Shown here: positions 1 through 57,107 of the stretch, in pieces
How positions within the stretch are numbered: position 1 is the stretch's first letter
How the letters are laid out: every line of letters starts with the position of its first letter
NCBI GenBank assembly: GCA_951406725.2
Contig: OX597822.1
Span: 63,674,001-63,738,000 of the forward strand
DNA length: 64,000 bases
Reading direction: 5' to 3'
Origin: Octopus vulgaris
Lineage: Eukaryota
Notes under the pieces: generated by a model
What the model was told of the DNA's origin: nothing
Database searches by the model: none
What the model saw: the letters and a program-made list of their open reading frames with translations, nothing else
Translations under genes and position numbers: made by a program

Positions 1-2267
1 TAAAGCGACGAGCTTGGCTAAATCGTTAGCATGCCAAACAAAAATGCCCAGTGGCATTTCTTCCGGTTCTTTTCGTTCTGAGTTCAAATTCCTCCGAGGT
101 CCACTTTGCCTTGCACCTGTTCGGGGTCGATAAAATATGTATCCTTTCTACTCTTGGCACAAAGTCCGAAATTTTTGGAGAGTGGGGAGGCAGTCAATTG
201 GATCTGGTACTTAATTTATCGACCCCGAAAGGATGAAAGGCAAAGTCGACCTCGGCGGGATTTGAACTCAGAACGTAGCGGCAGATGAAATACGGCTACG
301 CATTTCGCCCAGCGTACTAACTTTTCTTATTTCTTTACTGCCTACAGGGGGCGGAAACACACCAGCATTGGTTGTCAAGCGATGTTGGGGGGACAACCAC
401 AAACATACACATATATACACGGCGGGCTTCTTTCAGTTTCCATCTACCAAATCCACTCACAAGGCTTTGGTCGGTCCGAGGCTATAGTAGAAGACACTTG
501 CCCAAGGTGCCACGCAGTGGGACTGAACCTGGTTTGTAAGCAAGCTGTGGATCTTGTTAAATTTCTTCCCTCGGCATACAAAACTACAAAAATAATCTAG
601 TTTAAATTTGAAATACTTGTAGTGGTCACAAGAAATCTAAGAAGATCCCAAATGTGTTCGTCCCCACTTTTTTTAAAGATAGTGGTAATGTGATTTGAGG
701 GAGATGTGGTATTATATCTAGCAAATCAAGTGAGCGTGTAGAGGGAGACAATGGTGGCTCTCATATAATGTCGATATGGAAACCAACAGCCGTTTAAATT
801 CTGTCACCATAACACCAGAAGTATATTCGTTTCATGCTTTGGATCTTCCTAATAAAGGGAAGCCTGGTTGCCTTTGACATGTTCCATTTTACTACTACAT
901 TTTCCCCGATAATTAAATACAAACGCTATCTTCCAACGCCCACCTCCTCCTGCTTCCAAAATCGGTCCCATGCCGCCGGGAACCCTCTCTTCCCCTCAGC
1001 CTGGAGGTGGGTGAATAAAAGAAGATTCGCAGTCCACAAATCAACTTGCTATTTGCTTCAAGAAAGAAGAAACTTCGGTGAAAAAGAAAAAAAGAAAGAA
1101 AAACAGTTCATTTGTGAAAGATGATTAAAAAAAAAATTTTGTATGTCTGTCTTCCATATGAACACGATTGGTACATTCTTCTCATATTGTATGGTATTCT
1201 TCGAATTTTATCACTGAAACTCCATTCGCTGAGTTAGCTGGGTAACACTACTTCCTCGTTTAGCAATCGTTTTTATTTTGTCATACTCCAGTAATAACAA
1301 AAATAAATAACGATTCCGATTGTATGTTTAAACTTTCTGTTCGCTGAAAAGCGTAATGTGACCTGGAGGAAGTGAAGGAAAAATAGCCAACATAAACGAA
1401 AACTTAAGAGAAGTAGCGGGGAGAGGAGGGAAAGAGAGACTGAGAGAGAAAGTGGAGGCGGGGGCAGAATCTAGTGAAATTATGTGGCACCAACGAATTT
1501 ACAGAGAGGAACTTCCTACGTGGTCGCTCGACCAGACAGAAATAGCTACAAAACCTCCCTCAAATAACTCTATTGTCTTAAAAATCACCAATTCTTTCTT
1601 TTCACCAATAGGCGTATTGTGACCTAGAGGAATTGCAAAAAATAAAAGCTTACACAGAGAAAACTTAGAGAGAGTGCGGGAGATAATGAGCGAAATTCTG
1701 AGGCATCAACGAATTTAAAGAGAGGGAAGGGTATTTGCGTAGTCGTTCGGCATGCTAGAAATAGCTACCAAATCTCTCACAAAGCACACCGTATTGTCTT
1801 TAAAAAAAATAAATATAGTATACATAGAATGATGTAGTCCTAGACATATTGTTTCTGATAACAATCCGTCGTTGTCACAACTGGAAAATTTTTGATCATA
1901 GGGTCTGCTCTGCTCAACTAGGGCCTGACCGCTGGATTAAACAAATTCCAGTCTTTTATGATGTGGCGGTATTTCAGCGGATCTTTTTCCTTTTGATGGA
2001 CGGAATTTCTAGTTAACTAAACAATTACAGTTAATAATAATTACAGCTAAACATTATAGCTAATAATAATTCATAATTCTTTCTAATACAGACACAAGGC
2101 TTGAAATTTTTTGGGGGGCGGGGGGATGTGTTAAGTCGATTGTATCAACTCCAGTACTTGACTGGTATTTAATTTATTCTATCGAGCCCGAAAGGATGGA
2201 AGGCAAAGTCAACCTCGGCGGGATTTGAACTCAGAACTAATAGCCGAGAGAAACGCCGTTATGTATT

Positions 2268-2465
2268 CCCCGCCATATCGCGGTTTATTAAGTCTATGTC
2301 GATTCCTCCGTGGTGTTTTTGTTTTGCGTTTATAATAAAAAAAATATAGATACAAATTATAGAAATAATAATAAAAATATACAGTACTGTTTCTACTTCG
2401 CGGATTCTCACGTATCTCGGAGACTTTTGGAACGTAACACCCGCGATAGTCGAGGGATTACTGTA
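2268..2465. mobile_element. Tigger/pogo-like MITE fragment
   Basis: Ends CGCGATAGTCGAGGGATTACTG-TA, with a partial inverted match CCCCGCCATATCGCG at the left. Confidence 0.45.
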
Positions 2466-2738
2466 ATAATTTGTTAATAGAAGTATGTGTGTGTGTGTGT
2501 GTAATCACTTTATATATGATTATGGGTTCGCACTGGGGTGGGTTGCAATGGAGAAACAAAAACGAAAAAATAAAAAAATCCTCAATCATATTGAGTGGGG
2601 GGTAATATCATGAGTTTTTGCGAGTTAGTACTCAGATATTCTGAGTTATCCGATGAACGAGAACAAAAAGCTCAGCTTTAAATAAGTGTATATAAATAGC
2701 ATTATATATTATAAATAGATACTTGAAAGCCGAGTGAG

Positions 2739-2795
<57 letters not shown>

Positions 2796-3061
2796 CTGGG
2801 GGCGGTGTTGGTGGAGGTAGGTAACATTCTAAGGGTGTACCAAAGAGACAGGAAAGAGTGGGTGGGAGGGAATGGCTGTTGCGCGCACGCGCGTATGGAA
2901 AACTGATGGGTTTCGAAAATACTTTTACGATTCTTTGGTTTCTTGTTCTCTTTTCACGTAGCAGTTTGTTATACGTACATCTGTCTGTCTGTCTATATAT
3001 ATATATCTGTCTATCTATCTATATATCTATCTATCTATCTATCTATCTGTCTGTCTATCTG

Positions 3062-3162
<101 letters not shown>

Positions 3163-3469
3163 GTATCTATCTGTCTGTCCGTCAATCTATCTGTCTGTCT
3201 GTCTTATACAGGCATACCTCAATTAACGTGTTTTCGACTTCACGGTTTTTAAAAATTAATAGGAAAAAGAAACCTCAATTAGAGTTAATTGATCCGACTT
3301 TACGTCGGTCTTAGCGAATATATTTAAAATCATAAACATTGAAAAGAAAAAAAAAAAACATCACCATAAAACCCGTACTAAAGTGGAAAAATCAAATAAA
3401 ATACACGTAAAAAATATGTACAAACAATTTATTAAAACAGGTGCAAGGTAAATAACTTTTTTCAAACGT

Positions 3470-3560
3470 TTTTTCTTCTCTTCCGTGTTACGTCGCTTTT
3501 TGAGTTGAGTCGAGTCGCACGTCCTTGGAACAAAATACCGATGTAAGTTGAGGTATGCCT
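3470..3560 (+). promoter_or_regulatory. Candidate promoter / non-coding first exon of the FAM214 gene
   Basis: Locally CpG-rich unique sequence (TTCCGTGTTACGTCG...GTCGAGTCGCACGTCC) followed by donor-like GTAAGT (3543) and GTATGC (3553). The exon at 18503 has an acceptor, so an upstream exon is required. Not proven. Confidence 0.3.
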
Positions 3561-3696
3561 TTGTGTACACACACACACGCACACATCAGCCTGTGGTTGT
3601 TATCTTTCTTGCCCCACCGCCCCACGCTCACACACGCTTACCCTTGCGCATAAACCCTTTCCCCATCGCATCACCCCCTCGTCATCCGTCCGTTAC

Positions 3697-3733
<37 letters not shown>

Positions 3734-4179
3734 CCTTTCACACTAATGTCTTCCTTCCTTCATTTTTATTACCACTCTATCCCCGCCCTTATTCAACCAC
3801 TACCACCACCACCACCACCACTACTACCACTACAATCAGGCACTGCATTTACTTACTGTAGTGGTTATTAAGTATTGCGTTTCTGTCGGCGGTGCAGTTT
3901 CTGGGAATAGCAGCAACGAAAATTCACCCGTAGTAGTAGTGGTGGTAGTGGTAGTAGCAGCAGCAGCAGCATAGCTTAACAGGTCTTTCCCCTGACGGGT
4001 TTTCTTCCTCTTTATTTGTCCTCCTCCAGTGCGTGGTGGCGGTGGAGTTGACGTTGTTGGAAATTGAAGAGACGAGATACAAAGAAAATTGCCAACATTA
4101 TTATATAAATTTCTTTCCAGTTTAAAAAATGTGAATAATTAAAAAAAATAGTCTTCCACCCTTGCATCTGCTGCTGCTG

Positions 4180-4212
<33 letters not shown>

Positions 4213-6472
4213 TAGCCCCCCATCCACCCACCCACTTGTAACACCCTCACCACCATCAGGTTGTGCCTCTGTCGCCGCTGCTCCCGACGCCAGTACGAGC
4301 ACTTCAGTCAATTCCACCACCACCAACAACAACAGCAACACTAATAATAATATTACGACTGCTATTCTATCAACGTCGTTACCACCACCACCACCACCAC
4401 CACCACCACCACCATCATCTTAGCCTCTTCCACCAGATTCCACCCCTACCATCATCAATATCCCCACCATCATTATCTTAGCCACTTTCATCACATACCA
4501 TCACCACCACCACCACCTCTGTACTCATGATCCAGTCTTGCTAAATAAAATGGTTATAAGGGATCTGAATTTATGCGAAAAGTTAAAAGTTATTAAATGG
4601 GCGAAATATAGAAGAATATTTTTTAACATCAACTTAAACCATTGTAAATATCAGAGATATTTTTATAAATAGTTTCTAAATATGTCTGATATGCATTTAA
4701 AAAAAAATTGCCCTAATTCGTTTGTTATTGGTATGTGGAATTATAACAAACAAAAACTAAATCTTGTTTCGTTTCATATATCTTGTAATATCTATATATT
4801 TCTTTTGCGAATTATTTATAACTTTGAATAAAGCAAGTACATACATTATAAACCACATCTCAGTATTTGTATGATGTAAAGAAAATTGAGATCTTGGTGT
4901 TGTTCTTTCGTTATTGGTACGTGTAATTATATAACAACGAAAACTAAATCGTGTTTCGTTTTATGATTTCGGTTTTTGTATATTTCTTTCGCGTATTATT
5001 TACAACTTTGAATAAACACTAATTATACAATACAAATCGTATTCCAGTCTTTACACGATTTATAAAAAATTGAGATCATGGTAATTTTAAAAATAATTTC
5101 TGGTAATTTTTAAATAATCTTAACAACGTAAATCACAATATACACAAATTTTTAATATTGTAATCCAGAAAATTATATCAAAGAATAAGCAGTTGTGCAT
5201 TTGTCGCAAAAAAGCGAAACAAAATAAGGAACCACCCCACAAAAAAAAAACCCCCTTTGCAGAATCCTAATTTTTTAAATGAAGCAAATTACCAATAAAT
5301 TGCAAGGTTATTTCCCAATTTCAATTAATGAAGTTAGATTATATACATAATTTTCTTTCTCTTTGCTTATACTACAGAAACAAACATTTGTGCTTGGCTA
5401 GTTTGACGAAGTGAAACTGGTACATTAAAAACGTGAAATCGGGACATTAAAAATAATACTACAAACGCAAAGTGAACATGTTCGCTCTGAGTTCAAATCT
5501 CACCGAAGTCAACTTTGCTTTTTTTCACTTTCTTTCAAGGGTCGATAGAAAAAAAGCACGTACGAGGTTTCCAGCTTGAGCATACCATTCCTCTTATCCT
5601 CTTCTCCTTCACACTAATCTGTGCGGCTCCGTAATGGGTGATGGCCACTAAATTCACCTACTGACAGTACCATCTTAAGGCATGGACACACTGGGCAATT
5701 TATCCAGGAGCCTCTCGGGTCTAGGGGCTCAATTTGGATGGATCTATATATGCTGTGGCTTGCTGTCAATAAATAAATGATATCGGGCCCAGTGCATAGA
5801 TTCTCCCGTGGGTGGGTCTTATAATACTGTTCAGAGATAAGGAAAACTTTCAAAGCCCCTGATACTAACATATTCACGTGCATTTGTGTAATATGCTTTG
5901 CATAAATGGGGCAAAATTTCAATAAAAGGGCCAAGATAATTAAAATTAGATCTGAATAAGGTGTTGTTAGGTTATATAAGAAAAACACTAGTATGATCAT
6001 AAAATGTCCACCACAATCATCATCATTACCATCAGCGCTACAACAACCACAACCACCGTCGTCACCACCACCGCCGCCGCCACCACCACCACCACCACCA
6101 CCACCACCACCACCACAGTTATGTGTTTGTGATTAAAAGTCCTTTAAATTTTGGAGTTTCTGTAATCTAAATTCTCCCTCCATCCGAACGACCTTCTCTC
6201 CAGTGCGCACCCCCCCCACCTCACCAATCTGTTATACCCCGCCCCTTTCATCGAACTTCCTTCAATCTCCCCCCCATTCTTTCTCCCTCCCTCCTTCTCA
6301 TTCTTTCTTTCTTTCTTTCTCTTTCTTCTCTTTCAGTAAAAGCTTGCCTCCAATAGTTTTCTATTTTCTTATCTCCACCACCTCATATCGTTACATCGAG
6401 TTCCTGTTATCGATATTTCTCAAACCTTCATTGATCTCTATCTCTCCCCGCCCTACCCCACCCCCACCTCGC

Positions 6473-6503
<31 letters not shown>

Positions 6504-8749
6504 CATCTCCCAATATTTTCTACATGAACCGCAGCAACACTTTCTTTCCTTCACGGCAACCACCTCATGGATTCTATTATTTTTGTCGAGCAAACTGTGT
6601 GACTCTTCTCACTTATCTTTGCTCAATCATCACCACCAACATCATCATCTTTCTCCTCCTCCTCCTCATCATCATCATCATCAGCAGCAGCAGTAGTAGC
6701 AGCAGCAGCAGTAGCAGGAGGAGGAGGAGGAGGAGGAGGAGTGGTAGCACAACGTAAACAGCAACAGCGATATATCAACACTGTCAACAACAACAATTTA
6801 TCAACACTATCAACAACAACACCACTAACAACAAAGCCAATGACATCAACAGTTAACAATAACAACAACAACAATATATTAACTCTGGCAACACCTACAG
6901 CTATACATCAACACTGTCAGTAACAACATGAACCTGCTCAGTCAAGCATGGCCTGGGGTTAAATAGCAATAATAACAACAAAAACAACAAGCACTCTGCT
7001 GTTTTCTGTTCGTGTCAATGTTTCCAAATTGTCAATTAATCAAATTGTTTTGACCGCAACAGCCTGAACCACCAAAGACATTTGTCAACAGATGACCATA
7101 CGATCATGAGATACACGTGTCCTACTCATTTTTCAACTGTCATTGCAGGTATGTTTGTCATCTGTTTCTGTCAGCGTCAATTTTTTTCGCCCCCATTGTT
7201 GTGTTTGACACGTATGACAGGTGTCAGCAAATGCATACCACCTGCATCACCAGAAGTAAATATTTTGTTTGTGAAGGTGCACCTGACGTGTTGTCGTCAA
7301 ACGGATGTGTTGCCGAAGGTGTGTGTTGAATGTACGTAAAGGTGAAGGTACATGTGTGTCAAGCGTACGGTTATTTGTCAAAGACAAATGTGCTGTCAAA
7401 ATATCATCATCATCATCATCATCTTCATCATCGTTTAACGTCCGCATTCCATGCTTGCATGGGTTGGACGGTTTGACTGAAGGCTGGCGAACCAGAAGGC
7501 TGCGCCAGTCTCCGATCTGATCTGATCTGGCAAAGTTTCTACAGCTGGATGCCCTTCCTAACGCCAACCACTCCGAGAGTGTAGTGGGTGCTTTTGCGTG
7601 CCACCAGCACGAGGGTCAGTCAGGCGGTACTGGCATCGGTCACGCTCATATTCACAATTATAAACGATGAAGGTACACGTGTTGTGAAAGGTGTATCTAT
7701 TGACGAAGGTAACTTGCGTTGTCAGAGATATGTATATTATTGAAGGAACATGTTTTGATGAAGGAAAATGTGTTGTCAAAGGCACATATGTTGATGACAG
7801 TATATGTTGACAAAGATAGCTATGCTGTCAAAGGTAAATATGTTGTCAAAAGTGCATCTATTTACAATTATACATGTTTTGAAAGTTATACGTATTGATG
7901 AGAGTACATATAATCGTGTAAATTGTGTTACATCCAAGTTACATTTATCAAAGGTAAAACTATATCGTCACAATTACATTTGAAAGGACAGTAGGTCTAT
8001 GCTTCGACTGATACATGTCCTCTCTTAGGAACAAGTCTCCAGAGTTACATATATGTCAGCATAGGTTCATAAGTGTTTCCATAGGTACGTATGTGTCCCA
8101 TAAGTCCATCTGTATCACCATAGGTAGATCTGTATCATCATAAATACATGTGTGTCCTATAGGTATATTTCTGTCAACATATGTGCCTCACCATAGACAT
8201 AAGTTTTACTATGGGTGTCCTTGTTGGTACATGTTTCTCTAACGATATACCTGTGTCACAGTAAGGACTTAAATACCTCTGTATGTACCTCTGTGTACCA
8301 TAAGTACATTTGTATCACACGAGGTACATCTGTGTTATCCTAGGCATATTTGTGTTCTTAGGTGTTTATCTGTCATCATGTTACATTTAGGTGCATTTGT
8401 GTCATCATAAATGTATAAATTTCTTCATATGTACATCTGTAACTCATAGGTGTCTCATAGAGACGTAAGTTCCCCAGAGGTACATGTTCCTGTAGGTACA
8501 TCTGTCATTAGAGATTATACCTGCGTTGCTATAGCTACACATGTATCTTCAGAAGCATATGCGTTTCAGCAGTACATTTGTATCACCAGATGAAAGTCTG
8601 TTACATTAGAAGTATATGCATACCGTTAGAAATACAACTATGTCAGTGCAAGTCTGTTATTAGATGTACATTTGTAGCATGAGATGTACAACTGTATCAG
8701 TTGATGTGCATCTATTTTACAACAGTTACAACTGTGTCACCAGAATTAT

Positions 8750-9435
8750 TACAAGTATAACTGTGTCTCGGCAGATACAAATTTCAGTGGAGGGAGGGGG
8801 CATCTATTTGACAAATGTAACTGTCACAGCAGGAACAACTGTTATCAGGGGTTGTATATATGTCACAAACATAACTGTTTCAGTGGATACAACTGTCACC
8901 AGTGGGAGGGGGAATCTAAAACACAAACATAACCGTGTCAAAGCAGATAGAACTGTCACTTGGGAATGCATCTGTATCACAAACATAATTGTGTCACAAC
9001 AGATACAGCTTTCACTAGGGGCTGCATTTGTATCACAAACATAACTGTGTCACAGTAAATACAGCTGTCACTAGAGGTTGCATCTATATCATAAACATAA
9101 CTGTGTCACAACAGATACAGCTGTCACTAGAGGTTGCATCTATATCATAAACATAACTGTGTCACAACAGATACAGCTGTCACTAGGGGCTGCATTTGTA
9201 TCACAAACATAACTGTGTCACAACAGATACAGCTGTCTCTAGGGGCTGCATCTAGATCACAAACATAACTGTGTCACAACAGATACACCTGTCTCTAGGG
9301 GCTGCATCTATATCACAAACATAACTGTGTTGCAGCAGATAAAACCGTCACTGGGGGTTGCATCTAAAACAGAAACATAACTGTGTCACAGTAGATTGAA
9401 CTGTCACAAGGGGAGTGCCTTTATGTCACAACAGC
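8750..9435. repeat. 56-bp minisatellite (about 12 copies)
   Basis: Unit CA(C/T)AAACATAACTGTGTCACAACAGATACAGCTGTCACTAG(A/G)GG(C/T)TGCATCTATAT. The 56-bp period was verified between 9090 and 9146. Confidence 0.9.
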
Positions 9436-11039
9436 TGAAACTGAAACCAAATCTTCTTAAAATCATACACTACGTTTTTGAAAAAAATTGAAGGATATGT
9501 TTACATAATATGGTTCCTAGATGCACTATTTTATGCTTAAAAAGAAGATAGACGGAACATGGCTGGAAAATACATTTGATCGTATCTCTTTTCTTATTGT
9601 TAACTGTTAACCCTTTACTTCGTCAAAGCATATTCATAAGTCTCTCCTAAACGTCCAGGCTTGTTTTCAGAATTTTAGTTAGTCGTTCTGAGTAATATAA
9701 AGCTTTCCTTTCATAAGTCTCGACTTACTCCGGTGGTTGAAAGAACAAAATGGTATTGTGTATCATATATGATGCATAGACGCCAGGGGAAAATATCCTG
9801 AGTGTTATATATATTACACAGGAGAGCCAGAGCGTTAAGATGGCCAGGGCAAACACCGAGCGGAATTTGAACTCACAACCTTTTAATAAGCATGCCACTC
9901 ATTTATCCACTCCGATACTGCGACACCTTACATTCTCCATTGTCACCTCCTCTCCCTCTTCTTTTTCTCTCACATACGCACTCATGCTCACACTCACGCT
10001 TACTCTTTCTCTATCTCTTTACGTCGTTCACTCCACTCATCTGTTACTTCTTCACTGTGTATACTTCTATTATTCTTTGCACCCCTCTGTATACATCCCT
10101 CTCTCCTTGTTATCTGTCTGTCTCTCTGTCTCTCTTTCTGTCTGTCTCTCTCTCTCCATACTACACTTCTATATTTTTTACTTGACTTCTCTTTGTTCAC
10201 ACTATGTAAATAACTCGTATTCATACATACGAACAGAAAGCCTCTTACTAAATCATTCGACCTGCTACAATTAGCAGCCAAATCTCCTTCAAATAATACC
10301 TTATTTTCTTGAGAAAGAAGGACATATTCTGACAAAAAAGACGGGATGGTCATAAATGGAACGTTTTTTTTTTTTTTTTTGCTAACCTGGGCTAAACTGC
10401 ATAACCCTAAATCCTTTCTGCAATCTCTCTCATACCCATTCTCTATAATATATATTTATATATGTATGTGTATGTGTGTGTATCTTTCTCTCAACATTTA
10501 TACCTCTCTGTTACGTCATTTCTTACTCCCCCTCAGTCTACATCTCTCTACTTCTCTGACTCCCTCCCCTTCCTCTTCCTTTTCCTCGCTATCAGCTGGG
10601 TGTTTTCTCTGCATATTTTATATTTCCCCTCACAACATTTGCATATGCCCCGCCTTTATCTGTGCTGCTACCTCGCTCCTCCTAATTCGTTTCTACTTCT
10701 ATAAAAGTAGGTGTGTCCATCTGGAGTTTACGTTTTTTTTCTGGAGTGAAAGTAGCAATAATTGTTGTTATTGTTTTTTAATCCAGTTTAGCCCTGATCC
10801 CGAGCTAATTTACAATCAAGAGTGTTTCAACCATGACCATCCCGTCTCTTTTCTTTCTCTCAAATATATTGTACTTCTGGTTACATTATATAATGCGTCC
10901 TTTTTTCAAAAACGGTTTCATGTGATTTTGGAAAGAGCTGATTGCTATTTCTAGCTTCTCGTGCGACCACATAGCGGTTGCCTTGTGATGGGTGTGGTTG
11001 ATAGAAAGAGATAGGTTCTCCCCATTCCTGGCAGACGTA

Positions 11040-11830
11040 CGTACATATATATATATATATCGCACACACAAATATATATGTGCATATATTTATACATACG
11101 CACAAAATAACAAAACAAAACAAATACACGTGTACACATCCATGCTAGCATCACCGCACGCGTACACAATACGTACACGCATACATGCGAAACGCGCATC
11201 AATTATACATGCAAAAATACATAAGCGCACACACGCATACATACGCATATGAAAGCACGCACCCACATAGACAAAAAAACGCATACTCATATATGAAAAG
11301 CTTGCACGCACACACACACGTATAAAAACGCAGACGCACGCACATAAAAATCGCACACACACGCATATAAAAGCGCATACATATACAAATAAACGCATAC
11401 ATGCACGCATATAGAAACGCACACCCACACATATAAAATCGCACACGCACGCATATAAAGGCGATTACGCGTACATAAAAGTACACACGCTCTCATAGAA
11501 AAGGGTGCACATGCACTTGTACAAAAACGTGCACACACACACACCCACTCACACACACACATATACATTAACGCACACATATGCAAAAGGCGCGCACGCA
11601 CGCACGCACGAATCAATATACGTTCACACAAAACGAGTCACGCGCACACGCACATATAAATGCTCACACATAGTAGTGCGCGCGCGCGCACACGCAGAAA
11701 TGCGTGCGCACACATATACTAAAAAGAGTCCACGCCCATCCACACATAAACGAACGGCACACATGAAAAAAATGCGCGCATCCACATTAAAGACACGCAC
11801 GCTTCACACATACAAACTTGTACAGGTCCA
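11040..11830. repeat. Degenerate (CA)/(CG)-rich low-complexity tract
   Basis: Repeating ACGCAC/ACACAT/ATAAAA motifs. Confidence 0.8.
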
Positions 11831-12321
11831 TATAAGCACTCCTTCCCCTATAAACGCACCCACACGTGCCACAACTATTCCAGACCTAGTTTTGAGGTCG
11901 TTGCCTCCAAAACTCCTCCAGTTCCGCCCCTCCTCCACTGCACCGTATTCTTCTTTTCTAGCCTAATTTCTTCTGTCTCTTCTTGCAACCGTTATGATGC
12001 AACAGCAAGCCGTATCTGCTGCTGATGTGTGTTATCATTATTATTATTATGACTTGTTATTTGTTAGGACGATGACGGTGGTGGCGTTGTTGTTGTTGTT
12101 ATTGTTGGCGGCGGCGGCGGCTGTGGTGGCGTTCATCTTCTACCACCCGTGTTTCACGCTATTTCATGCCAGTTATTTATCATATTTACCTTTATTTATC
12201 TATCTAGTTCGATGTTTAAAGCTTTGAGAAGGGTTCCATTCTTTGAGTGTGACGAAGTGAATTAGGGCAGCCAGGGCTTTCAAACTGTCAAATACCAGCA
12301 CAACACTCACTATTCGCCCTC

Positions 12322-12377
<56 letters not shown>

Positions 12378-12822
12378 CTGCAATATTTTGGTTCTCTCTC
12401 TCTCTCGTCGCTGTTTCATAAATGAGAAGAGAAAACGGGCTTTGTATCAATGTGTATATATTCTCCTTTCTTCGCCATGGTGTCGACTAGTTTTAGAATA
12501 TTTTCAGACCATCTTCAATATTTTCTTTTTACTTTTCTTTCTCTCTTTCTTTCTAGCTTTCTCTCTTTTTATTAAAAATAGCAATGTGTTCGCACCCTTT
12601 TCAATCACCTTTGAGAAAAAAACACTGGCTCAGGTTGCATAATGCGTGTATGTGTGCGCGCACACACACATATAATAATAAAAATAATAATGATAATAAT
12701 AATAATAATAATATTAGCAGAAGTAACAGAGTGACTCAAGGTCTGAGAGTTTCTGTTACTCATTAATAAAAATATACATATACTCATATTTTGTGTATGT
12801 TTTTCCTGCTTGCATCAACATA

Positions 12823-12825
<3 letters not shown>

Positions 12826-12870
<45 letters not shown>

Positions 12871-12884
12871 CCCAAATAAGGAAG

Positions 12885-12937
<53 letters not shown>

Positions 12938-13134
12938 TGAAGAATGGGTGTATAGATAAGACTTTTAAGAGAGAACAATACTTTTAGAGAAGAAATTTGA
13001 TTCAGGGTATTGAAAAGTTCAGTGTGTGTGTGTAATATCTATTGGTAGATATAAAACAATTAAAATGCTACTTTACTAATGGCTATAATAATAGATTCAT
13101 TAGAAATGTGAAATGTATATCTTTGTATGTGTGT

Positions 13135-13206
<72 letters not shown>

Positions 13207-13297
13207 ATATAGATAGATTGATATATAGATATATCTATCTATATATCTATCTATGTAGATAGATATATCTATCTATATATCTATCTATCTATCTATG

Positions 13298-13328
<31 letters not shown>

Positions 13329-13857
13329 CATTTAACATATATGGGTATATGTATTCCAGTGAATAAACATTATCTTGTTTTTAGAATGCGATACAAATTA
13401 GTATATGCATAAATATACTTACACACACACACACACACATAATAAACGGTGGTGGTAAGAAAAGCACAAGGTGAAACTTAATAACTTTCACCTTTTGTGA
13501 TGTGTGTGAGGCAAAGATATATGTGTGTGTGTGTGTATGTATATATGTGTATGTGTGTATATGTATGTATATGTGTGTGTGTATATATATATGTACGTAT
13601 ATATATTTGTGTGTATGTGTGTATATGTATGTATATATATGTGTGTGTGTGTATGTGTGTATATATGTAACTATGCTTGTATGTATAGCTATATATTGTC
13701 TATATATGTGTTGTCTCTATATATGTACACACACACATATATATGTGTGTATATATATGTGTATGTGTATATATATGTGTGTATATATATATATATATAT
13801 GTATGTATATATGTATGTATATATGGATGTATATATGTATATGTGTATGTATATATG

Positions 13858-13895
<38 letters not shown>

Positions 13896-14026
13896 TATAT
13901 GTATATGTATATATATGTACATGTATATATATGTATATGTATATGTATATGTATATATATATGTATATATATATATGTATATATATATATATGTATATGT
14001 ATATATATATATTATATATACATGTG

Positions 14027-14067
<41 letters not shown>

Positions 14068-14208
14068 ATATATATATATATGTATATATATATATGTGTA
14101 TATATATATATGTGTATATATATATATATATATGTATGTATATATATGTATATATATTATATATGTGTGTGTGTGTGTATGTGTATATATATATATATAT
14201 ATATTATG

Positions 14209-14239
<31 letters not shown>

Positions 14240-14240
14240 G
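12826..14240. repeat. Compound (TA)n/(TG)n/(TAGA)n microsatellite field
   Basis: Read directly from the sequence; source of several spurious Y/I/C/V/M-rich ORFs. Confidence 0.95.
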
Positions 14241-14496
14241 TATTTGTGTCAGTGCACTAAATTTGAATATCTGTGTCAATGTATGCGAATTTATGCATCT
14301 CGGACGGCAGAAATATACACGTCAGTGCGTAAACACGATAATGTATTCGCGTGTATTTGTTGTGTGTCTGAAACACATGTAAAAACATTATAAGTGCTCG
14401 TGCACCTCAAGCCTCTTCCTACCACTTGATCTAGTTACATACAGTATTACTGCTGCTGTTAATTATCTGCTCCCCTGTGTGTGTTTGTTGTGTTTG

Positions 14497-14528
<32 letters not shown>

Positions 14529-15208
14529 GGTCCCAGATCTGTGATCAAAGTGGTTCCAACCATGACCACTCCACCCCTTTCTTCGACATCATGCATCCAC
14601 TACACCTGTCCGATACTGCTCTCCCACCCTGATTCTACGGTACAAAACTTCCTGTTTTAAAGAGATTTAAATTAAGACATTTCATTAAAAAATCTCGTGC
14701 TAATTTATGCTCGAAAACCCAGTTTAATAATTTAGTTATTTTACCAAATTTCTTCATTAATTTTAAAATTAATAAACAAAGAACATTGTATCTCTGCAGG
14801 AATTTGTAATGAAAATGTTAACGAGATTTGGCTGTTATTTCTAGCAAATCGATCGACTATATAGAGACTTACTGTTCTTATAGATGTTGGTTCCTGTATT
14901 GCGCTAATCGATAAATCTTATTTAGAAGAGATTTATCTGCTATTTCTAGCAGGGTTAATGACCACGCACAGGTTCCTTTATTGGTCCCCACCTCCTCCTT
15001 GTTGATATTGCTACTGTTGTTGAAATCTTTATCACCAACGACGACGACCACCACCACCACCACCACCGCCACCGTCATCATCATCATCATCATAGTATTA
15101 TTTTCCATGAGTATGTATGCTAGAAAACACCCAGCTTGTTGCTATGGATATGGTATCCCCCCATTCCTCTTCCACAAACAGTCAGAAGAAGCATGACTAT
15201 TTGTATAC

Positions 15209-15247
<39 letters not shown>

Positions 15248-15751
15248 TGTGTGTGTGTATATACACATACACACACATATTTGTGTATATGTCTGTATAT
15301 GCATGTGCATGTATATATGTGTATGCATCATCATCATCATCCAGTGTTTTAAATCTGGGTTTTGTCCCCCCCCGTTCCGGGTGGGGGAGGAGGGAGGATC
15401 TACCTCAATGGGGCGTCCTCCTTTTTCAAACCAGCCCTTCTAATCTCCTCCCCCACCTGTCCCCTCCACTTGTCCCCTCCACCTCGCTGGCATGACTTTA
15501 GGTTCAGTGTGTTTTACTTCCACTATAACCCTGGGCTGACCACTTATAAGTGGATTTGGTAGATGAAAACTGAAAGAATTCCAATGTGTGTGTATATATA
15601 AGCTGTGTGGTAAGTAGCCTACTTAACAATCATGTGGTTCTGGGTTCAGTCCCACTACGTAGCACCCTGGACAAGTGTCTTCTACTATAGCCTTGGGCTA
15701 ACCAAAGCCCTATGAGTGGATTTGGTAGACAGAAACTGAAAGAAGCCTGTC

Positions 15752-15787
<36 letters not shown>

Positions 15788-16391
15788 TAAGCAATAAAGG
15801 GTTCAGCAACGAATTGCCTTACCACATACCGAATTTAGAAATAGCAGTCAAAGAGTTATAGCTATTTCTCTACTAAAAAGGGAGATCTCAGTAAAAACAG
15901 CAATTGGAAGGCAGACACAAACAGGTAAGAGAGAATGAATTGACGGCAATCTATCATACAATTTTAAGTTATCTACGGACGTACGTTTCGAAATCAAGTT
16001 TTTAGGAAAGCATAAGAATTAAATATTAAATAATTCTATCTTACCGAAAACTTCTTTCTCTTCAGCGTAGAATACTATAATCATAAATGATTATATATTG
16101 AATTTTGAGATACTAGAAGGCATCAACTCAACTCAGTATCAGAGCGAGCTAGAATCCGCAACTAGTATCACCAAATTCAATGTGTGAATGAAAAGATTGT
16201 GTCACCAGCCCCTTCCCACCCGCGTGTAGCCAAAACAAGATGCTGTGGTCATCTACTGAGATAAAATATGGTTATCCGTGATAATGAAGGGTGAAATTAA
16301 TTAATTTGGAATAATTATCAATTACACCAAGTAGTCAATACTTGGTGTAATTGATAATTATTCCAAATTAATTAATTTCACCCTTCATTAT
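15788..16391 (-). mobile_element. Penelope-like (pLTR-type) fragment carrying a hammerhead and a terminal foldback, inserted in the (TA)n of a SINE
   Basis: Unique sequence bounded on both sides by (TA)n. It contains the hammerhead at 15972-16071 and a 53-bp perfect inverted repeat, and splits a SINE-A copy (15603-15752 and about 16430-16643). Confidence 0.55.
15972..16071 (-). ncRNA. Type I hammerhead ribozyme with intact core and long stem II
   Basis: Minus strand reads TCTACG-CTGAAGA-GAAA..(long hairpin)..TTTC-GAAAC-GTAC-GTC-CGTAGA. Perfect 6-bp stem I, complete CUGANGA/GAAA core, palindromic stem III loop and a GUC cleavage triplet. Confidence 0.8.
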
Positions 16392-16647
16392 ATATATATA
16401 TATATAGATAGATAGATATGTGTATGTGTGTGTGTGTGTTTGTTCTCCCCCCAACCCCAACATCACTTGACAAGTGATGCTGCTGTGTTTACATCGCTGT
16501 AACTTAGCGGTGTGGCAAAAGAGACCGATAGAATAAGTACTAGGCTTACAAAGAAAAAGTCCTGAGGTCGACTTGTTCTACTAAAGGCAGTACTCCAGCA
16601 TGGCCACAGTCAAATGACTTAAACAAGTAAAAGAATAAAAGAATATA

Positions 16648-16701
<54 letters not shown>

Positions 16702-16728
16702 TAGAAAAAGATAGTTATGGCCAGTTTA

Positions 16729-16792
16729 TAGGGTTACTCTGGGTTTCGTGTCAGGAAAGCACTTAGCTTTAAATACGTCTTGTCAGACCCTA
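16729..16792 (-). ncRNA. Hammerhead ribozyme motif with a core mutation (CTGACAA)
   Basis: Minus strand reads TAGGGT-CTGACAA-G...C-GAAAC-CCAGA-GTA-ACCCTA. Perfect 6-bp stem I, but G8 is replaced by A. Confidence 0.6.
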
Positions 16793-17154
16793 ATGGCCCT
16801 GGGTAACCCCATGAAGCGGCCATAGCTATCTTTATCTACGTACTCTTTTGCTGTATAACTTAAACAGTTTGCTTCTGTTTCAAATTTACGATTTACTGAT
16901 AATAAAACAGATATGAATGTGTGTGTGTTTTGACATCGAATAATAACAAGCTGCGTTGTTTCTTTCCAAACTTGCAAAGAAATATGTCCGGCCACCTGCT
17001 GGGAAACAGGTGAGGGTTAACAGCAGAAAGAGCTACTTGGCATAGAAAATCTGCCTCAGTGGATTCCTTCTGACTCATGGTAGCATAAAATGGTAAATGT
17101 CAAAGCAATAATGATGATGATAATACATGTGTGTCTATATATACAAATCCATAC

Positions 17155-17189
<35 letters not shown>

Positions 17190-17215
17190 CATATACACCC
17201 ATTTATTTATATTTA

Positions 17216-17274
<59 letters not shown>

Positions 17275-17376
17275 TTACATATATTCATTCATATATATAT
17301 GTATATATATTTATATATATATACTTATATACTTGTATAATTATATGTATGTACCTATACATACACACACGCGATG

Positions 17377-17411
<35 letters not shown>

Positions 17412-17735
17412 CACACACACATAACTATATGTACACACACACATATTATCCATTTATATATATATACATACCCATATATATGTGTGTATATATGTGTGTG
17501 TGTGTGCATACATACATACACATACCTGTATGTATATATATATATATAATTTAGATTGAGTTGAATAAGGTACTTCAATTAGGTACTTTGTTACTCATTT
17601 ATATGTATGTATGTGTGTGTGTATATATATACATATATATGTATGTGTGTGTGTATATATATATATACATACATCATACACATACCTGTATGTATATATG
17701 TGTGTGTGTGTATGTGTATGTGTGTGTGTTGTGTG

Positions 17736-17770
<35 letters not shown>

Positions 17771-18502
17771 GTGTGTATGTCATTTCGTTTATATATTATG
17801 AAGCATTTCCTTTTATATAATGAAACCACATCGTAACTGAAATGTTAGTTAGTGCTAATTAATTAAGCTATCCTTAAAAGTCTATAATTACAAAAATTAC
17901 TCATTGGCTCATGGTTTTTCTGGTTCAAATTTATTTCAATGTTTGCACTGATTATCAATGCCATGGAAATGTCTTCTGATACTAATGCATCATAAGTAAC
18001 AGAAGGAGCACATGAGAATTGAGTGTATAAGTACTAGGTGGACATATACATCTTACAGCAGTAAGGTAGAAGAGTGTAAAGTAGTTTGTGCTGCTCTGTG
18101 TTGTTTGGATATGATTTTATTCCTTTCGGTGACTCCCTCATGCCATAATCTCTTCGTTGCCTTTGCTTTGGCGATGTTGGTGTCATTGCTGAAGGTATTT
18201 ATACAGGTTGCTGTTGTTGCTGTTACTGAGGAAGGGTTTGTTTAAGAGTATTACTCCTCCTCCTCCTCATCTCCCTTCCTCCCTCCATGTCAGCCACATC
18301 CCAAACCCAAGTATCAAACATATATGTGCATCATCAGCTGCCGATCAGATATCATTATAGTTTCAACACCACATAGTAAATGAAATACAGTTTTATAAAT
18401 GCTTGTCGTTTTCAGAGATTTCTTCTTCTCTTACAAAACTCAGCCCTCTACCATTCCGATATTATAAAGATTTTTATAATGGTTCTTCTCTTTGTGTTGC
18501 AG

Positions 18503-18681
18503 ATCTCCAGCAGAATATGGAGGATGAAGACTGGGATCCTCGAGAGCTGTTTGTTACAATAGGGATGCTAATTGTTGAGGCTCGTCTACCTGAGCTGTCA
18601 GCAAAAGGAAGAACTGAGGGCCCACACTGTCCTCAGTTCCCGAAGGTCAATAAGCATGTCTGTGATTACCAGGACATCAGG
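18503..18681 (+). CDS. FAM214A: ATOS/FAM214 homologue, first recognisable coding exon (probable ATG at 18517)
   Basis: Acceptor ttgcag at 18501-18502 and donor gtgagt at 18682. Encodes MEDEDWDPRELFVTIGMLIVEARLPELSAKGRTEGPHCP...KHVCDYQDIR, resembling the FAM214A N-terminus as recalled (EEFLVSLALLITEGRTPECSVKGRTESFHCP). Ends in phase 0. Confidence 0.9.
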
Positions 18682-26289: not shown

Positions 26290-26605
26290 ATATGTGTATA
26301 CACATACGGCTACATATATATTATGACACATATACACACACACACACATACTCTCTCTTTTTCTGTCTGTCTGTCACTTTATACACACACACACATACAT
26401 ATATACATACATGCATATATATACATATATACATACATAACAACCATGTACGTATATAAACAAACATTTGTTTTACAGTGAGAGAGAGAGAAAAAAGAGA
26501 GTATGTATGTGTTTCACTTTACACACACACACACACAATATGCATGTGTCTGTGTGAGCTAGCTGTAACTTGACTGATTTTTTTTTTTTTTTAAATTCCA
26601 TTTAG

Positions 26606-26805
26606 TGTTGTGAAGCAAAGAAATTCAAGATGTATATGGAAACACTCTGGAAGAACAGTATTCCTATGTGTATAGAGCTACTTCTGTTTCCAAAATGCAG
26701 ACATAACCAGCAACAGACCGATATCATGTTCGTTGACAGTAATGCTGAACATGGTGGTGAACAATTCCTTTTGGAACGGTGGGATGTTAATATGACACCA
26801 AAAAG
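26606..26805 (+). CDS. FAM214A: ATOS/FAM214 homologue, coding exon 2 (200 bp, not in the ORF track)
   Basis: Poly-T tract plus tttag acceptor, gtaaat donor. Encodes CCEAKKFKMYMETLWKNSIPMCIELLLFPKC...EQFLLERWDVNMTPK, matching the recalled LWKNNLPIMVEVMLLP and LLLERW motifs. Phase 0 to 2. Confidence 0.9.
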
Positions 26806-27586
26806 GTAAATTTTCAATTCCAATTTTTTATTTCAAAAATGAATGATATAATTGCTGTTGTTGTTACTATTATTTTTATTTTCATCTTTCAATTTTGTTT
26901 CCATTTCTTGCTGGGTATCTTCCTGACACTTAGGGCAAAGAAACTCATTGTTTGCTTTGATAGGTCATTAGAATAAACACACCAGATTATTATTGTTGTT
27001 GTTGTTGTTGCTGTTGTTGTTTTTGCTATAAAAGGTGGCACGGTGGTAGTATTGTTAGCATGCTGGGCAAAATGCTTAGCAATATTTCGTCTATCTTTAC
27101 ATTCAGAGTTCAAATTCTGCTGAAGGCGACTTGACTTTTCATCCTTGCAGGCTCAGTGAAATAAATATCAGTAGAACACTGGGGTTGATGTAATCAACTT
27201 ACTCCTCCCTCAAAGACCCCAGGTCTTATTCTTTGTAAGCCTAGTACTTATTCTTTCGGTCTCTCTTTTGCCGAATCGCTAAGTTACGGGGACGTAAACA
27301 CACCACCATCGGTTGTCAAGCGATATTGGGGGGGACAAACACAGACACACAAACATACACATACACGTACATATATACGTACATATATACGTACATATAT
27401 ACGTACATATATATACATATATACGCCAGGCTTCTTTCAGTTTCTGTCTACCAAATCTGCTCACAAGGCTTTGGTCAGCCTGAGGCTATAGTAGAAAACA
27501 CTTGCCACGCAGTGGGACTGAACCCGGAACCTTGTGGTTGGTAAGCAAGCTACTTACCACACAGCCACTCCTACACCTATGAAATG

Positions 27587-29285: not shown

Positions 29286-30828
29286 AGGAACTAGAAATTG
29301 TTCAACATAACATTTAATATTCTCTAATGGCTACAGTAGTGTTTTCCAGTGTTTATGTTCTATACACTCATCACTCTTTTGATACTAACCCTTCTCAGGT
29401 TGCCCTTGGTTCTGTGGTACAAACTTCTTTTTCTTTTAAAGTGGTCTGAGTTAACAACCTTGGAAGCAATGTGGCCAATGCCAGTGTTGTGCGAGTGGCA
29501 AGTAATAAGCACCTTTCAAGCATTGGCTTTCATGGCAGCAATGGCAAATAACTGAGACCTTTGGCAATATACTGTGCTTGAGTAGAAGACCGATCAAGCC
29601 AAGTGAAATTGTTGTTGTGACATATACTGGTGTCACGCAACTGGCACCTGTGCCAGTGGCACGTAAAAGCACCCATTACATTCTTGGAGTGGTTGGCATT
29701 AGGAAGGGCATCAAGCCAAGTGAAATTGTTGTTGTGACGTATACTGGTGTCACACAACTGGCACCCGTGCCAGTGGCACGTAAAAGCACCCATTACATTC
29801 TTGGAGTGGTTGGCATTAGGAAGGGCATCAAGCCAAGTGAAATTGTTGTTGTGACGTATACTGGTGTCACGCAACTGGCACCCTTGCCAGTGGCACGTAA
29901 AAACACCCAATACACTCTTGGAGTGGTTGGTATTAGGAAGGGCATCCAGCAATAGAAACCATGCCAAATCAGATTTGAATTTGGTGCAGCCCCTCAGCTT
30001 ACCAGCCCTTGGTCAAACCTTCCAACCCATACCAGCATGGACAATAGATGTTAGATGATGATGCTGATGCTGTGGTGGCAGCGAGAGAAAGAGAGATATG
30101 TATATATGTGTGTGTGTCTTTGTGTCTGTGTTTGTCCCCCCCCCACCACCACCACCATTGCTTGACAACCGATGTTGGTGTATTTACGTCCCCATTGCTT
30201 AGTGGTTTGGCAAAAGAGACCATCAGATTAAGTACTAGGCTTACAAAGCATAAGTCCTGGGGTCGATTTCTTTTTTAAGTGACTGAAACAAGTAAAAGAA
30301 TAAAAGAATAAAAGAATATGCCCTAGACATTGTGCAATGCTAACAGGAATCTACAAAATGTGAACTGCTTGTCTGATAACCCGACATCATGTCAACTCAG
30401 CTATTGGCTGGTATAATCACATCTTATCCAATGATATTATTACTTAACTTACAAGTGACAAGAATTCCGGTTGATTCTCATATTTCTAAAATCAATACAA
30501 AAAAAAAGAAGATTTTGCAGATTTCACAGCTTGATAACAACAAGCTCCAAAGGTAATATTAGCAGCTTGATATGACTCAATCGATACAGCCAAGAATTAG
30601 ATATTGTGTCGATATCTGCTGTTGAGGCTTTTCCCATTGGCGGAAATGAATTAACTTGAAGCACTGCTGACTAACATGGCACGGCACAGCTGCGGATTCA
30701 GTCTCATTCACTTCAGCTTCTTATTATTAGTTTCCGCATCATCACCTAGAGCACTTTTCTGAGAAGGATAATGACCCTCAGTAACAACAACAACAACATA
30801 AAAGCTTTGAAATTTATTTGAATATGCG

Positions 30829-31843: not shown

Positions 31844-31885
31844 AACTGCTACTCAGAGTTTCACATTCCAGTTCATCAGGCAGTT
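31844..31885 (-). ncRNA. Minimal type I hammerhead ribozyme with intact core
   Basis: Minus strand reads AACTGC-CTGATGA-ACTGGAATGT-GAAAC-TCTGA-GTA-GCAGTT. Perfect 6-bp stem I, a short weak stem II and a GUA triplet. A decayed inverted copy lies at 31907-31949 (+). Confidence 0.65.
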
Positions 31886-32045: not shown

Positions 32046-32779
32046 CATCATCATCATCATCTAATGTCTGCTTTCCATGCTAGCATAGGTTGGACAATTT
32101 GACTGAGGACTGGCAAACTAGATGGCTGCACCAGGCTCCAATCTGATCTGGCAGAGTTTCTACAGCTGGATGCCCTTCCTAATGCCAACCACTCTGAGAG
32201 TGTAGTGGGTGCTTTTACATGCCACCGGCATGAGGGCCAGTCAGGCGGTACTGGCAACGGTCACACTCAAGTGGGGTATTTTACATGCCACCTGCACAGG
32301 AGCCAGTCCAGCGGCACATATATGTATATGTTTATATATATATATATTTGTGTGTGTGTGTGTGCTGTTGTCTCCTTGTCTCATCATCTGTTATAGTTGT
32401 AAATGACCCACTGTCTTGCATGTGATATCCTTCATTTTTAATTTTCTATGAAAATGTGTCATGTCATGAGGAAATATTACCACATTTGGGAATAGATGAG
32501 GGTTGGCCGCAGACAGGGCATCCAGCTGTAGAAAATCCATTTCAACAAATTCCTTCTATCCCATGCACGCATGAAAATGTGGATGTTAAAATGATGTGGA
32601 TGAAATGCTTTATTTACAAGAATCTAAAAAAAATTGGTTATTGCCATTTTTCCATCTCCTTAAATTAAGAAATTATTTTGTGTTTGACTCCAAAAAATGT
32701 TATTCAGTTAGAATCACATGATACCCAGAAAAAGATCTGTAATAAACTACAAACAAAATTTTTCCTCTTATTTTAATAG

Positions 32780-32914
32780 GTGGACAGATAAATCGGAGAA
32801 ATTTGTTACAGGAATGTTCCTTGTTCAAGCCATGAGGTCTTACTTATTTTTTTCTCAGCTAAGTTCTTGGTTGAATTCAACAGGTGGATTACTGCCACTA
32901 ACAATAGCTTATCG
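32780..32914 (+). CDS. FAM214A: ATOS/FAM214 homologue, coding exon 3 (135 bp)
   Basis: aatag acceptor and gtaagt donor. Encodes WTDKSEKFVTGMFLVQAMRSYLFFSQLSSWLNSTGGLLPLTIAY, containing the family motif AxRSxxFFSQLSxWL. Phase 2 to 2. Confidence 0.92.
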
Positions 32915-33321
32915 GTAAGTCCTGTTTCTCATACTTTAACAATTTTCTCTTATTTGCTTGGTTCCATATTTTCGATGGCATAAAAAATGCAGAGCATATT
33001 AAACACACCATAGATTCAGCTGTGCATGTTGAGGAAAAAAGGTTTTCAGTGCATTAAAGCTTACAGGATTCCCAACTTTGCATATAAGCTCAGGGCTCAG
33101 GTGTGGCAGTGTAGTAGGAAGCTTGCTTTGAAACTACATGGTTCTGGGTTCAGTCTCACTGTGTGGCACCTTGAGCAAGTGTCTTCTACTAAATCCTTGG
33201 GTTGACCAAAGCTTTGTGAGAGGATTTGGTTGATGGAAACTGAAAGAAGCCCATCACATATATATATGTATGTGTGTGTATATATGTGTGTGTATATATA
33301 TATATGTATCTATATGTATAT

Positions 33322-36521: not shown

Positions 36522-37213
36522 TGTTGATTTGTCTGCCTAAACCCTTGGTGGCATTTGAACTTGGAACATAAAGGTAGACAAAATGCCACTGAGAATGTTG
36601 GGAATGCTAACGATTCTGCCGGCTTGCCACTTTGAGATATAGCTGATGCTAGTGCCACCTATCTGGCTCCCATGCCAATGGCATGCAAAAAGCACCATTT
36701 GAGCATGGTTGATGCCAGTGCTGCCTGACCGGCCCCTGTGCCAGTGGAATGTAAAAAGCACAGCTTCTACACTCTCAGAGTGGTTGGCATTAGGAAGGGC
36801 ATCCAGCTGTAGAAACCTTGTCAGATCAGATTGGAGCCTGGCGCAGACTCCTGGCTTGCCAGTCGTCAGTCAAACCGTCCAACCCACTCCAGCATGGAAA
36901 GCAGACGTTAGACAATGATGATGATGATGATGAACAGAATCTAAAAACTAGGTTAAACTCCCTTTTGGATTGGAAAAGTTGAAAGCCTTTGATTATTTTT
37001 CTGCCCAAAATATTTTTTTAACCTAACATTTGGATACTGTCATCAATAGCTTTATCTACTTTGAGTTCTATAGTAAAATAAAAACAAAACAAATAATTGT
37101 CGAGACTCTGTTTGCCAATAACTTAACCAGTCATCTAATCTGTTGCCATTTCAGACAATAACACTTTCTTAAACTTCCACAAATTTTTGATTCTGTTTAA
37201 TCTCTAATTTCAG

Positions 37214-38837: not shown

Positions 38838-39166
38838 GTTTGTATAAAGATTGTATAAGGGTTCTCTTGTGTTGTGGTTTTGTTAGAAATTCTTCCAAGC
38901 TTATGTTTCAACAGTGAATGTGCATGGCATTGTGGTTAAGCTGTTGATCTCATAAACAATAGGTTGTGGGTTCAATTCTTGGACAGGGCAGCGTGTTGTG
39001 TCCTTGAGCAGGGTACTTCATTACATGCTACTCTACAACACCTGGGAGTTAATTCTGTGACAATCTAGCACCTAGTTCAGAGGAAGGGGTAAGTCTTGTA
39101 TTCAGTTTAAATGTCCATGGTAATCTGGATAAGCTCTGAGCAACAGGCTTGAGGGTTTTTTTCTTT

Positions 39167-48549: not shown

Positions 48550-48669
48550 AAGTGTATAAAAAAAAATGTCCCTTCCATTGAAGATATCACCAATTTCCAC
48601 AAAAACCTCAATAAAAGTACCAGTATGGTGTTCAACGCCTCCACTGGATTGCCAACTCAGTCTAGTCCT
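48550..48669 (+). CDS. FAM214A: ATOS/FAM214 homologue, coding exon 5 (120 bp)
   Basis: ttgcag acceptor and gtgagt donor. Encodes KCIKKNVPS...FNASTGLPTQSSP (cf. recalled FHPQTGLPLLSSP). Phase 0 to 0. Confidence 0.88.
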
Positions 48670-57036: not shown

Positions 57037-57107
57037 GCTCCTGTGAAGAAAAAATCTGGCCGGTTTGATTATGACAGTTCATTAACATCTACAAAGGCAA
57101 TCAAAAA
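57037..57107 (+). CDS. FAM214A: ATOS/FAM214 homologue, coding exon 6 (71 bp, not in the ORF track)
   Basis: catcag acceptor and gtaagc donor. Encodes APVKKKSGRFDYDSSLTSTKAIK (cf. recalled VPQRKTQSGCFDLDSSL). Phase 0 to 2. Confidence 0.85.

Follow-up and report, generated by a model that had tools for sequence, protein, structure and literature searches.

A predicted long-armed hammerhead ribozyme in a truncated copy of a young, non-coding retrozyme family of Octopus vulgaris

Introduction

Non-LTR retrozymes were described in metazoans by Cervera and de la Pena in 2020 (PMC7229834), and rolling copying over a circular RNA has been proposed for retrozymes (PMC7229834; PMC4209133). They have been argued to derive from Penelope-like elements (PLEs) (bioRxiv 10.64898/2026.07.22.740005; Li, Clavereau and Pollet 2026). 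The canonical metazoan hammerhead ribozyme has a 6-bp helix I, a 4-bp helix II and a palindromic helix III of 1-2 bp (PMC4209133). For an axolotl ribozyme whose helix III has 2 bp, cleavage was 22% as a monomer and much better as a dimer (PMC7229834), and 1/9 of the predicted Xenopus retrozyme dimers cleaved in vitro (bioRxiv 10.64898/2026.07.22.740005). Contact between U1.7 and an A of loop 2 raises hammerhead activity (PMC11875169).

PLE insertions are known in which only one of two inverted repeats carries a tail (PMC3846280, PMC8557442), and in vitro the PLE protein of an anole cuts both strands and extends them from two internal sites (PMC11167929). The minimal hammerhead of PLEs (min-HHR) has little or no helix III, a helix I of 4-5 bp, a loop 1 that is ill defined and an additional nucleotide lying between positions 9 and 10.1. 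A 2017 paper reportedly dealt with dimeric Penelope hammerheads.

Here we analysed a stretch of 64 kb of the Octopus vulgaris genome, referred to as the window. We are fairly confident that it holds a predicted self-cleaving hammerhead, located in one truncated copy from a young family of 594-bp non-coding retrozymes that was likely copied into (TA)n by a PLE enzyme and probably from circular RNA.

Results

A canonical hammerhead motif

A strict hammerhead descriptor gave a single match in the 64-kb window, at 15972..16071 on the minus strand, and no match in 200/200 block-wise dinucleotide shuffles. Read along that strand, the motif comprises the helix I 5' strand TCTACG (16071-16066), the cores CTGAAGA (16065-16059) and GAAA (15989-15986) and the helix I 3' strand CGTAGA (15977-15972). 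Cleavage is predicted directly after C17 at 15978, between 15978 and 15977. The motif thus has the type I arrangement of CUGANGA, GAAA and NUH with three helices, helix I being open. The original prediction had called it a textbook hammerhead with all catalytic nucleotides present, and every part it named was found on the minus strand; the core was also conserved among genomic paralogues.

The helices are 6 bp (I), 4 bp (II) and 2 bp (III, palindromic). Helix I extends across a 2x2 internal loop to a further pairing, AGT 16076-16074 with ACT 15969-15967, giving an extended helix I domain of 15967..16076. In the fold, the first 3' base of this internal loop is an unpaired U1.7 at 15971, which is kept in two sister families with units of 583 and 591 nt. 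The base of helix II pairs GAAA 16058-16055 with TTTC 15993-15990. Next come a small internal loop, in which the A at 15994 beside the helix is unpaired, and an interrupted hairpin of about 60 nt. Helix III and its loop are formed by the palindrome ACGTACGT (15979..15986). Its hairpin is weak (+2.4 kcal/mol) and its intermolecular duplex stable (-9.8 kcal/mol), so dimers are favoured, which bears out the earlier suggestion of a dimer-capable stem III.

This architecture resembles the canonical metazoan type I ribozyme (PMC4209133), including axolotl HHR_Amex2 (PMC7229834), in its 6/4/2-bp helices, palindromic tetraloop, G10.1-C11.1 pair and full core. It also shares the unpaired U1.7 and, beside helix II, an A, matching the U1.7-A(L2) contact (PMC11875169); by analogy, both bases appear to be placed for that contact here and in the two sister families. 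The motif had been compared with a minimal hammerhead, a comparison that did not hold. It has a 6-bp helix I with a defined loop, a 2-bp helix III and no extra nucleotide, and is instead the canonical 6-bp/4-bp form (PMC4209133) with an extension past loop 2. The isolated 116-nt ribozyme fold is ordinary in energy (z -0.97; 32/200 shuffles equal or better). In Rfam, 15780-16340 matched no hammerhead model at E≤10, nor was there a hammerhead among the 150 matches listed, of 196, for the window as a whole, probably because of the insertion of about 60 nt on loop 2. Since this hammerhead escapes Rfam, ribozyme censuses probably undercount such long-armed forms.

The arm on loop 2 is a family trait

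The helix II domain as a whole spans 69 nt (15990..16058, minus strand) by predicted pairing, and its length differs among relatives. In the predicted fold the arm is an appendage of loop 2 that leaves the canonical 6-bp/4-bp geometry intact: a long hairpin caps loop 2, which is internal here and terminal in canonical metazoan type I ribozymes. The original prediction of an unusually long stem II of about 70 nt was therefore correct as to a long arm, but what it took for stem II is a 4-bp helix II with an extra hairpin grafted onto loop 2. Nor is the arm peculiar to this site; it belongs to the family, and several other hammerhead families of the same genome have arms of 52-61 nt. The window copy lacks one A that the majority of copies have beside the base of helix II.

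Among relatives, arms measure about 30, 54, 60, 70 and 76 nt, the longest in a 601-nt subfamily of the 594-nt family. The shortest, of about 30 nt, occurs in a third relative with 70% identity in the 3' region and a U3-A8 core. Judged from these sequences, the arm is conserved in structure, variable in length and apparently dispensable in some relatives. Hammerheads with a 50-76-nt loop 2 arm are common in this genome, and the different lengths form a ready natural series for testing arm function. The published 'long helix II' is one of 6-8 bp (PMC13725137; PMC4209133), unlike the arm here. In the literature searched on octopus hammerheads and on extended helix II, including PMC3088659 and PMC13725137, no such arm is described; mollusc examples may appear in the supplements to the 2014 and 2020 papers.

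A truncated copy of a dispersed, non-coding family

The ribozyme lies in a 5'-truncated retrozyme unit at 15788..16336 (minus strand), the main arm, which comprises unit positions 234-593 and then 1-190, counted from the cut, and ends at a position that we call site A. A second, inverted arm of 53 nt follows on the plus strand (16339..16391; unit positions 237-289), is a perfect inverted repeat of 16281-16333 and ends at site B. Both ends lie in a target (TA)n microsatellite, found at 15753..15786 on the left and 16392..16406 on the right. A 21-nt ribozyme word had 245 exact matches in the 2.8-Gb genome (control, 0). The unit has a period of 593-594 nt (a 594-bp repeat) and a GC content of 34%. 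Its longest ATG-led frame is 36 aa and its longest stop-to-stop frame 66 aa, indicating that it is non-coding. Copies form tandem and inverted arrays of up to about 8-9 units, dispersed in (TA)n.

The family shows three features of a non-LTR retrozyme: a type I hammerhead in every tandem unit, no protein coding, and dispersed, recently mobile copies. The motif is a real, canonical hammerhead by prediction, with a long loop 2 arm, in a young retrozyme family of an already known element class. The family resembles metazoan non-LTR retrozymes (PMC7229834; bioRxiv 10.64898/2026.07.22.740005) in having tandem, non-coding units that each contain a single type I hammerhead, in low GC, in a ribozyme that is free to fold in the predicted circle and in co-occurring PLEs, which have been proposed as mobilisers. 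The 594-nt unit exceeds the approximately 170-400 nt of PMC7229834 and falls within the 51-972 bp of bioRxiv 10.64898/2026.07.22.740005. The present family differs from those described there in its loop 2 arm of about 60 nt and in the strict two-armed insertions described below.

The window copy is 98-99% identical to other genomic copies. It has one ribozyme and less than one unit, about 40 nt of the unit being missing, and so cannot release unit-length RNA. It is probably a dead passenger, the dead-end product of an insertion. The original prediction had taken this motif as the best candidate for a still-active ribozyme; activity is plausible for the family.

Genomic context and transcripts

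The neighbouring gene matches by 92-100% a protein named FAM214A of Octopus sinensis. This homologue runs on the plus strand from 18500 to 63585 and on into locus L189, with its first conserved coding exon at 18500..18681, outside the element, further exons near 26600-26806, 32778-32915 and 37200-38849, and later ones near 48547-48681, 57037-57105 and 63448-63585. The element had been placed antisense within the gene region, which is broadly right: on the opposite strand, some 2.1 kb separate it from the 18500-18681 exon, to which it is upstream. Peptide patterns revealed no upstream FAM214A exon in window positions 1-18500 or the 10 kb before. A PDB search with the exon peptide gave nothing significant, and Pfam gave no family for the 555-aa exon frame. 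mRNA-like contigs reach 679-775 nt further 5' than the 18500 exon, and that part is absent among the pieces listed in 14300-18499; the element is thus probably intronic, in a 5' intron. Being antisense to FAM214A, it would not cut the host transcript.

The position and orientation invite the reading that the ribozyme was recruited by the host to regulate FAM214A through an antisense transcript. We give this almost no credence: the copy is recent, 98-99% identical to dispersed copies, and the one contig end listed at 16336 continues into family sequence that the window copy lacks. The 594-nt unit is covered by contigs of 4/4 runs guessed to be RNA (3 studies), contigs that show neither strand, ends nor circles. 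Within 15842-15874, a single contig differs by six T>C changes, which read A>G along the ribozyme strand and are absent from about 165 genomic fragments; it may represent a hyper-edited transcript or an unsampled copy. We also considered A-to-I editing of helix I, as contigs taken as RNA have G at 1.6, and rejected it because the 549 genomic matches of the 583-nt sister carry G.

Constraint and the circular fold

Variants seen in at least two units spared the core and helices I and III (0/57, against 9/106 singletons; p=0.028) and broke predicted pairs less often (13/57 against 45/106; p=0.016), modest tests in which the singletons include assembly errors. Folded as a circle, the unit was more stable than 60/60 shuffles (z -5.6) and formed the ribozyme helices, with pair probabilities of 0.87-0.98 for helices I and II.

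The sister families were compared with this fold. The 583-nt sister (89% identical; 549 genomic word matches) had, across 164 pairs, 4 double-compensatory changes, including U-A to C-G in helix I, 9 one-sided changes and 4 broken pairs; 4/2000 shuffles reached as many double-compensatory pairs. In the 591-nt sister, 3/6 helix I pairs were changed compensatorily and 11/150 pairs overall (16/2000 shuffles), and the palindrome was altered yet still palindromic; its broken-pair count was borderline against the null (100/2000). Helix covariation was thus found among relatives, in two sister comparisons only. A 583-nt unit at L304 (minus strand) has a CCGATGA core, and the 3' half of its ribozyme folds differently in the predicted circle.

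Two-armed insertions pair one A end with one B end

We mapped 66 insertions, a non-random sample made up of the best genome matches to the element and the listed word matches on contigs C1-C7. Their 3' ends lay either at site A, 170-210 nt (about 190) after the cut, or at site B, 280-310 nt (about 290-300) after it, and by eye nearly always abutted (TA)n. Among the 33 two-armed insertions, 29 combined one A with one B end, 4 had one atypical end and none was A+A or B+B; 0/200,000 permutations reached 29. The 33 one-armed insertions had 23 A, 7 B and 3 other ends. These counts are uncorrected for L153, which was misclassed (its true end is A), and for short inverted B arms that were missed or classed as other at L111, L116 and L169. 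Two sister families behaved similarly: two B ends occurred in 0/32 rows (some of overlapping loci) in one and in 1/17 rows in the other, the loci of both having been retrieved with B-spanning queries. The strict pairing suggests that two priming events are coupled.

These insertions bear the Penelope signature of a 5'-truncated inverted arm and a tail at one end only. They resemble those of Poseidon PAc (PMC11167929), Adineta Penelope (PMC3846280) and Neptune/Naiad (PMC8557442) in that 3' starts occur at two internal sites downstream of the hammerhead, only one of the two inverted arms bears a tail, the 5' part is truncated and the targets are AT-rich or (TA)n. Here, in contrast, the tail measures about 100 nt rather than 30-40, there is no ORF and the ends coincide with short TA microhomology. 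PAc shows no strand preference for its start site in vitro (PMC11167929), whereas the two arms here use different sites. In the literature searched on twin priming by PLEs, strict A+B pairing is not described.

Units of one insertion mostly share a haplotype

Units of one arm diverged by 0.30% (180 pairs), those in different arms of an insertion by 0.53% (107) and those at different loci by 1.80% (17,189), and the units of one insertion mostly shared one haplotype. Sixteen variants were private to a locus and present in every unit covering them, in a sample of 66 loci from which donor arrays may be missing. Opposite arms shared private variants at L147, L156 and L174. Editing fixed into the genome was not supported as the source of the 16 private variants: A>G accounts for 4 of them and T>C for 6, with no bias by strand.

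Near-identical units within an array would also be expected of a satellite enlarged locally by unequal crossing-over after single insertions, a process discussed for vertebrate retrozymes (bioRxiv 10.64898/2026.07.22.740005). We regard this as very improbable, since the arrays are dispersed, their 3' ends are fixed and their 5' ends random, and private variants are shared by opposite arms. A private variant in all units instead calls for a step from monomer to multimer, most simply by rolling over a circle. Taken together, the A+B pairing and the shared haplotypes point to twin-primed, Penelope-type copying of one RNA, which was probably circular.

Circular or linear template

Arm 5' ends fell within 15 nt of the cut in 8/99 cases (expected 2.5; p=0.004), after two of 10 first counted at unit positions 1-15 (L023, L131) had been dropped as mapping artefacts; there were 148 intact passages across the cut site. 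The excess and the passages together fit a mixture of closed and opened templates.

The same excess suggests that some templates were probably open at the cut, in favour of a rival reading in which the same element and enzyme use no circle at all and copy linear RNA, either cleaved monomers with repeated end-to-end jumping or uncut multimeric transcripts of arrays. Template switching is indeed shown by internal slips in four arrays (L135, L144, L150, L153) and by the mixed haplotypes of L141, which a single circular monomer does not explain. Furthermore, the anole PLE inserts in vitro without a need for ribozyme cleavage, with unprocessed RNA as the main substrate (PMC11167929). Against a linear template stand the 148 intact passages; moreover, copying from uncut arrays only shortens them, leaving long arrays with private variants in every unit unexplained. 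DNA cannot separate a circle from end-to-end jumping on a linear monomer, and we hold a wholly linear template to be somewhat unlikely. L141 (G000:C5:14400500-14408000) is itself a two-armed array of 9-10 units, unlike other arrays in its mixed haplotypes, and reflects multiple templates or an assembly mosaic.

Search for an autonomous partner

The original prediction had proposed a parent element with RT and GIY-YIG domains. The Penelope connection was supported, but no such parent was found and the unit is non-coding: no RT plus GIY-YIG ORF between pseudo-LTRs (pLTRs) appeared in the sets examined. Ends shared with the family were sought at 30 GIY-YIG loci, at 20 ten-kb loci, of which 17 had near-full ORFs, and at 30 loci belonging to a second endonuclease family, and all three sets yielded separate nested fragments only; likewise, 30+30+20+30 loci of related or other hammerhead families showed separate nested insertions only. 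PLE protein matches lay beside 4/62 loci of the 594-nt family (L007, L150, L172, L175). Those at L007, L150 and L175 (L172 left out) were separate elements without shared ends.

These results bear on the idea that an autonomous Penelope-like element, yet to be found, has the unit as its pseudo-LTR, the copies being the 5'-truncated ends of that element. The PLE-type tail, inverted arms and hammerhead agree with it (PMC3846280, PMC8557442), Xenopus retrozymes are described as sisters of pLTRs (bioRxiv 10.64898/2026.07.22.740005), and our partner searches scored the best candidates only, 40-150 of them. Yet past site B the unit passes directly into its own 5' part in every array, and three of the four PLE matches and the endonuclease loci examined were separate. 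We therefore consider a pseudo-LTR origin improbable.

The same genome does contain a PLE family with intact RT-endonuclease frames of 781 aa and ends in (TA)n. A cysteine motif before its GIY-YIG domain fits the description of Neptune/Nematis (PMC8557442), and no DNA similarity to the 594-nt unit was detectable. A young Neptune-like PLE family (L072:1781-5481, L074, L064) has two overlapping frames, of 479 aa and then 781 aa (RT-GIY-YIG), where one ORF is usual, and carries near its 3' end a short variant hammerhead with a TTGATAA core.

Discussion

The preferred reading, copying from a probably circular RNA, would proceed as follows. Copies with at least two ribozymes would be transcribed and cut into 594-nt monomers, aided by dimer pairing through helix III, and the monomers would be ligated. 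A PLE RT-endonuclease, most plausibly of Neptune type, would cut both strands of (TA)n; site A of the RNA would serve to prime one strand and site B of that molecule the other, and the enzyme would copy round the unit, the two cDNAs being joined head to head. The one-A-one-B rule and the shared haplotypes provide a quantitative footprint of the Penelope insertion mechanism. The same footprint bears on the circle-templated copying proposed for retrozymes and is testable in the existing in vitro PLE system.

A more specific version seems unlikely as it stands: one circle would be engaged at the two fixed sites by a dimeric Penelope-type RT, with both enzymes rolling round it, and the 60-nt arm would be an exchangeable docking or switch domain that spares the catalytic geometry and through which a protein keeps the ribozyme off in the circle until copying. 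If true, this would explain structurally why the retrozyme circles of animals do not cut themselves, and would make these ribozymes the first natural hammerhead class regulated via a large loop 2 appendage.

Other features of the window

By eye, a second, degenerate type I hammerhead-like motif, probably inactive, lies 340 bp from the element at 16729-16792 (minus strand). It has a helix I of TAGGGT/ACCCTA and a CTGACAA core with G8 changed to A, and resembles a motif in L079. At 31844-31885 (minus strand) a short sequence with a helix II of 2 bp matches a hammerhead weakly, which may be due to chance. Tandem arrays with no hammerhead by descriptor occur at 57491-58243 (217-bp units), 29593-29950 (117) and 8800-9413 (56). 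A near-perfect 141-nt hairpin at 47832-47972 does not reach the threshold of microRNA models and resembles two pieces of a common repeat in inverted orientation.
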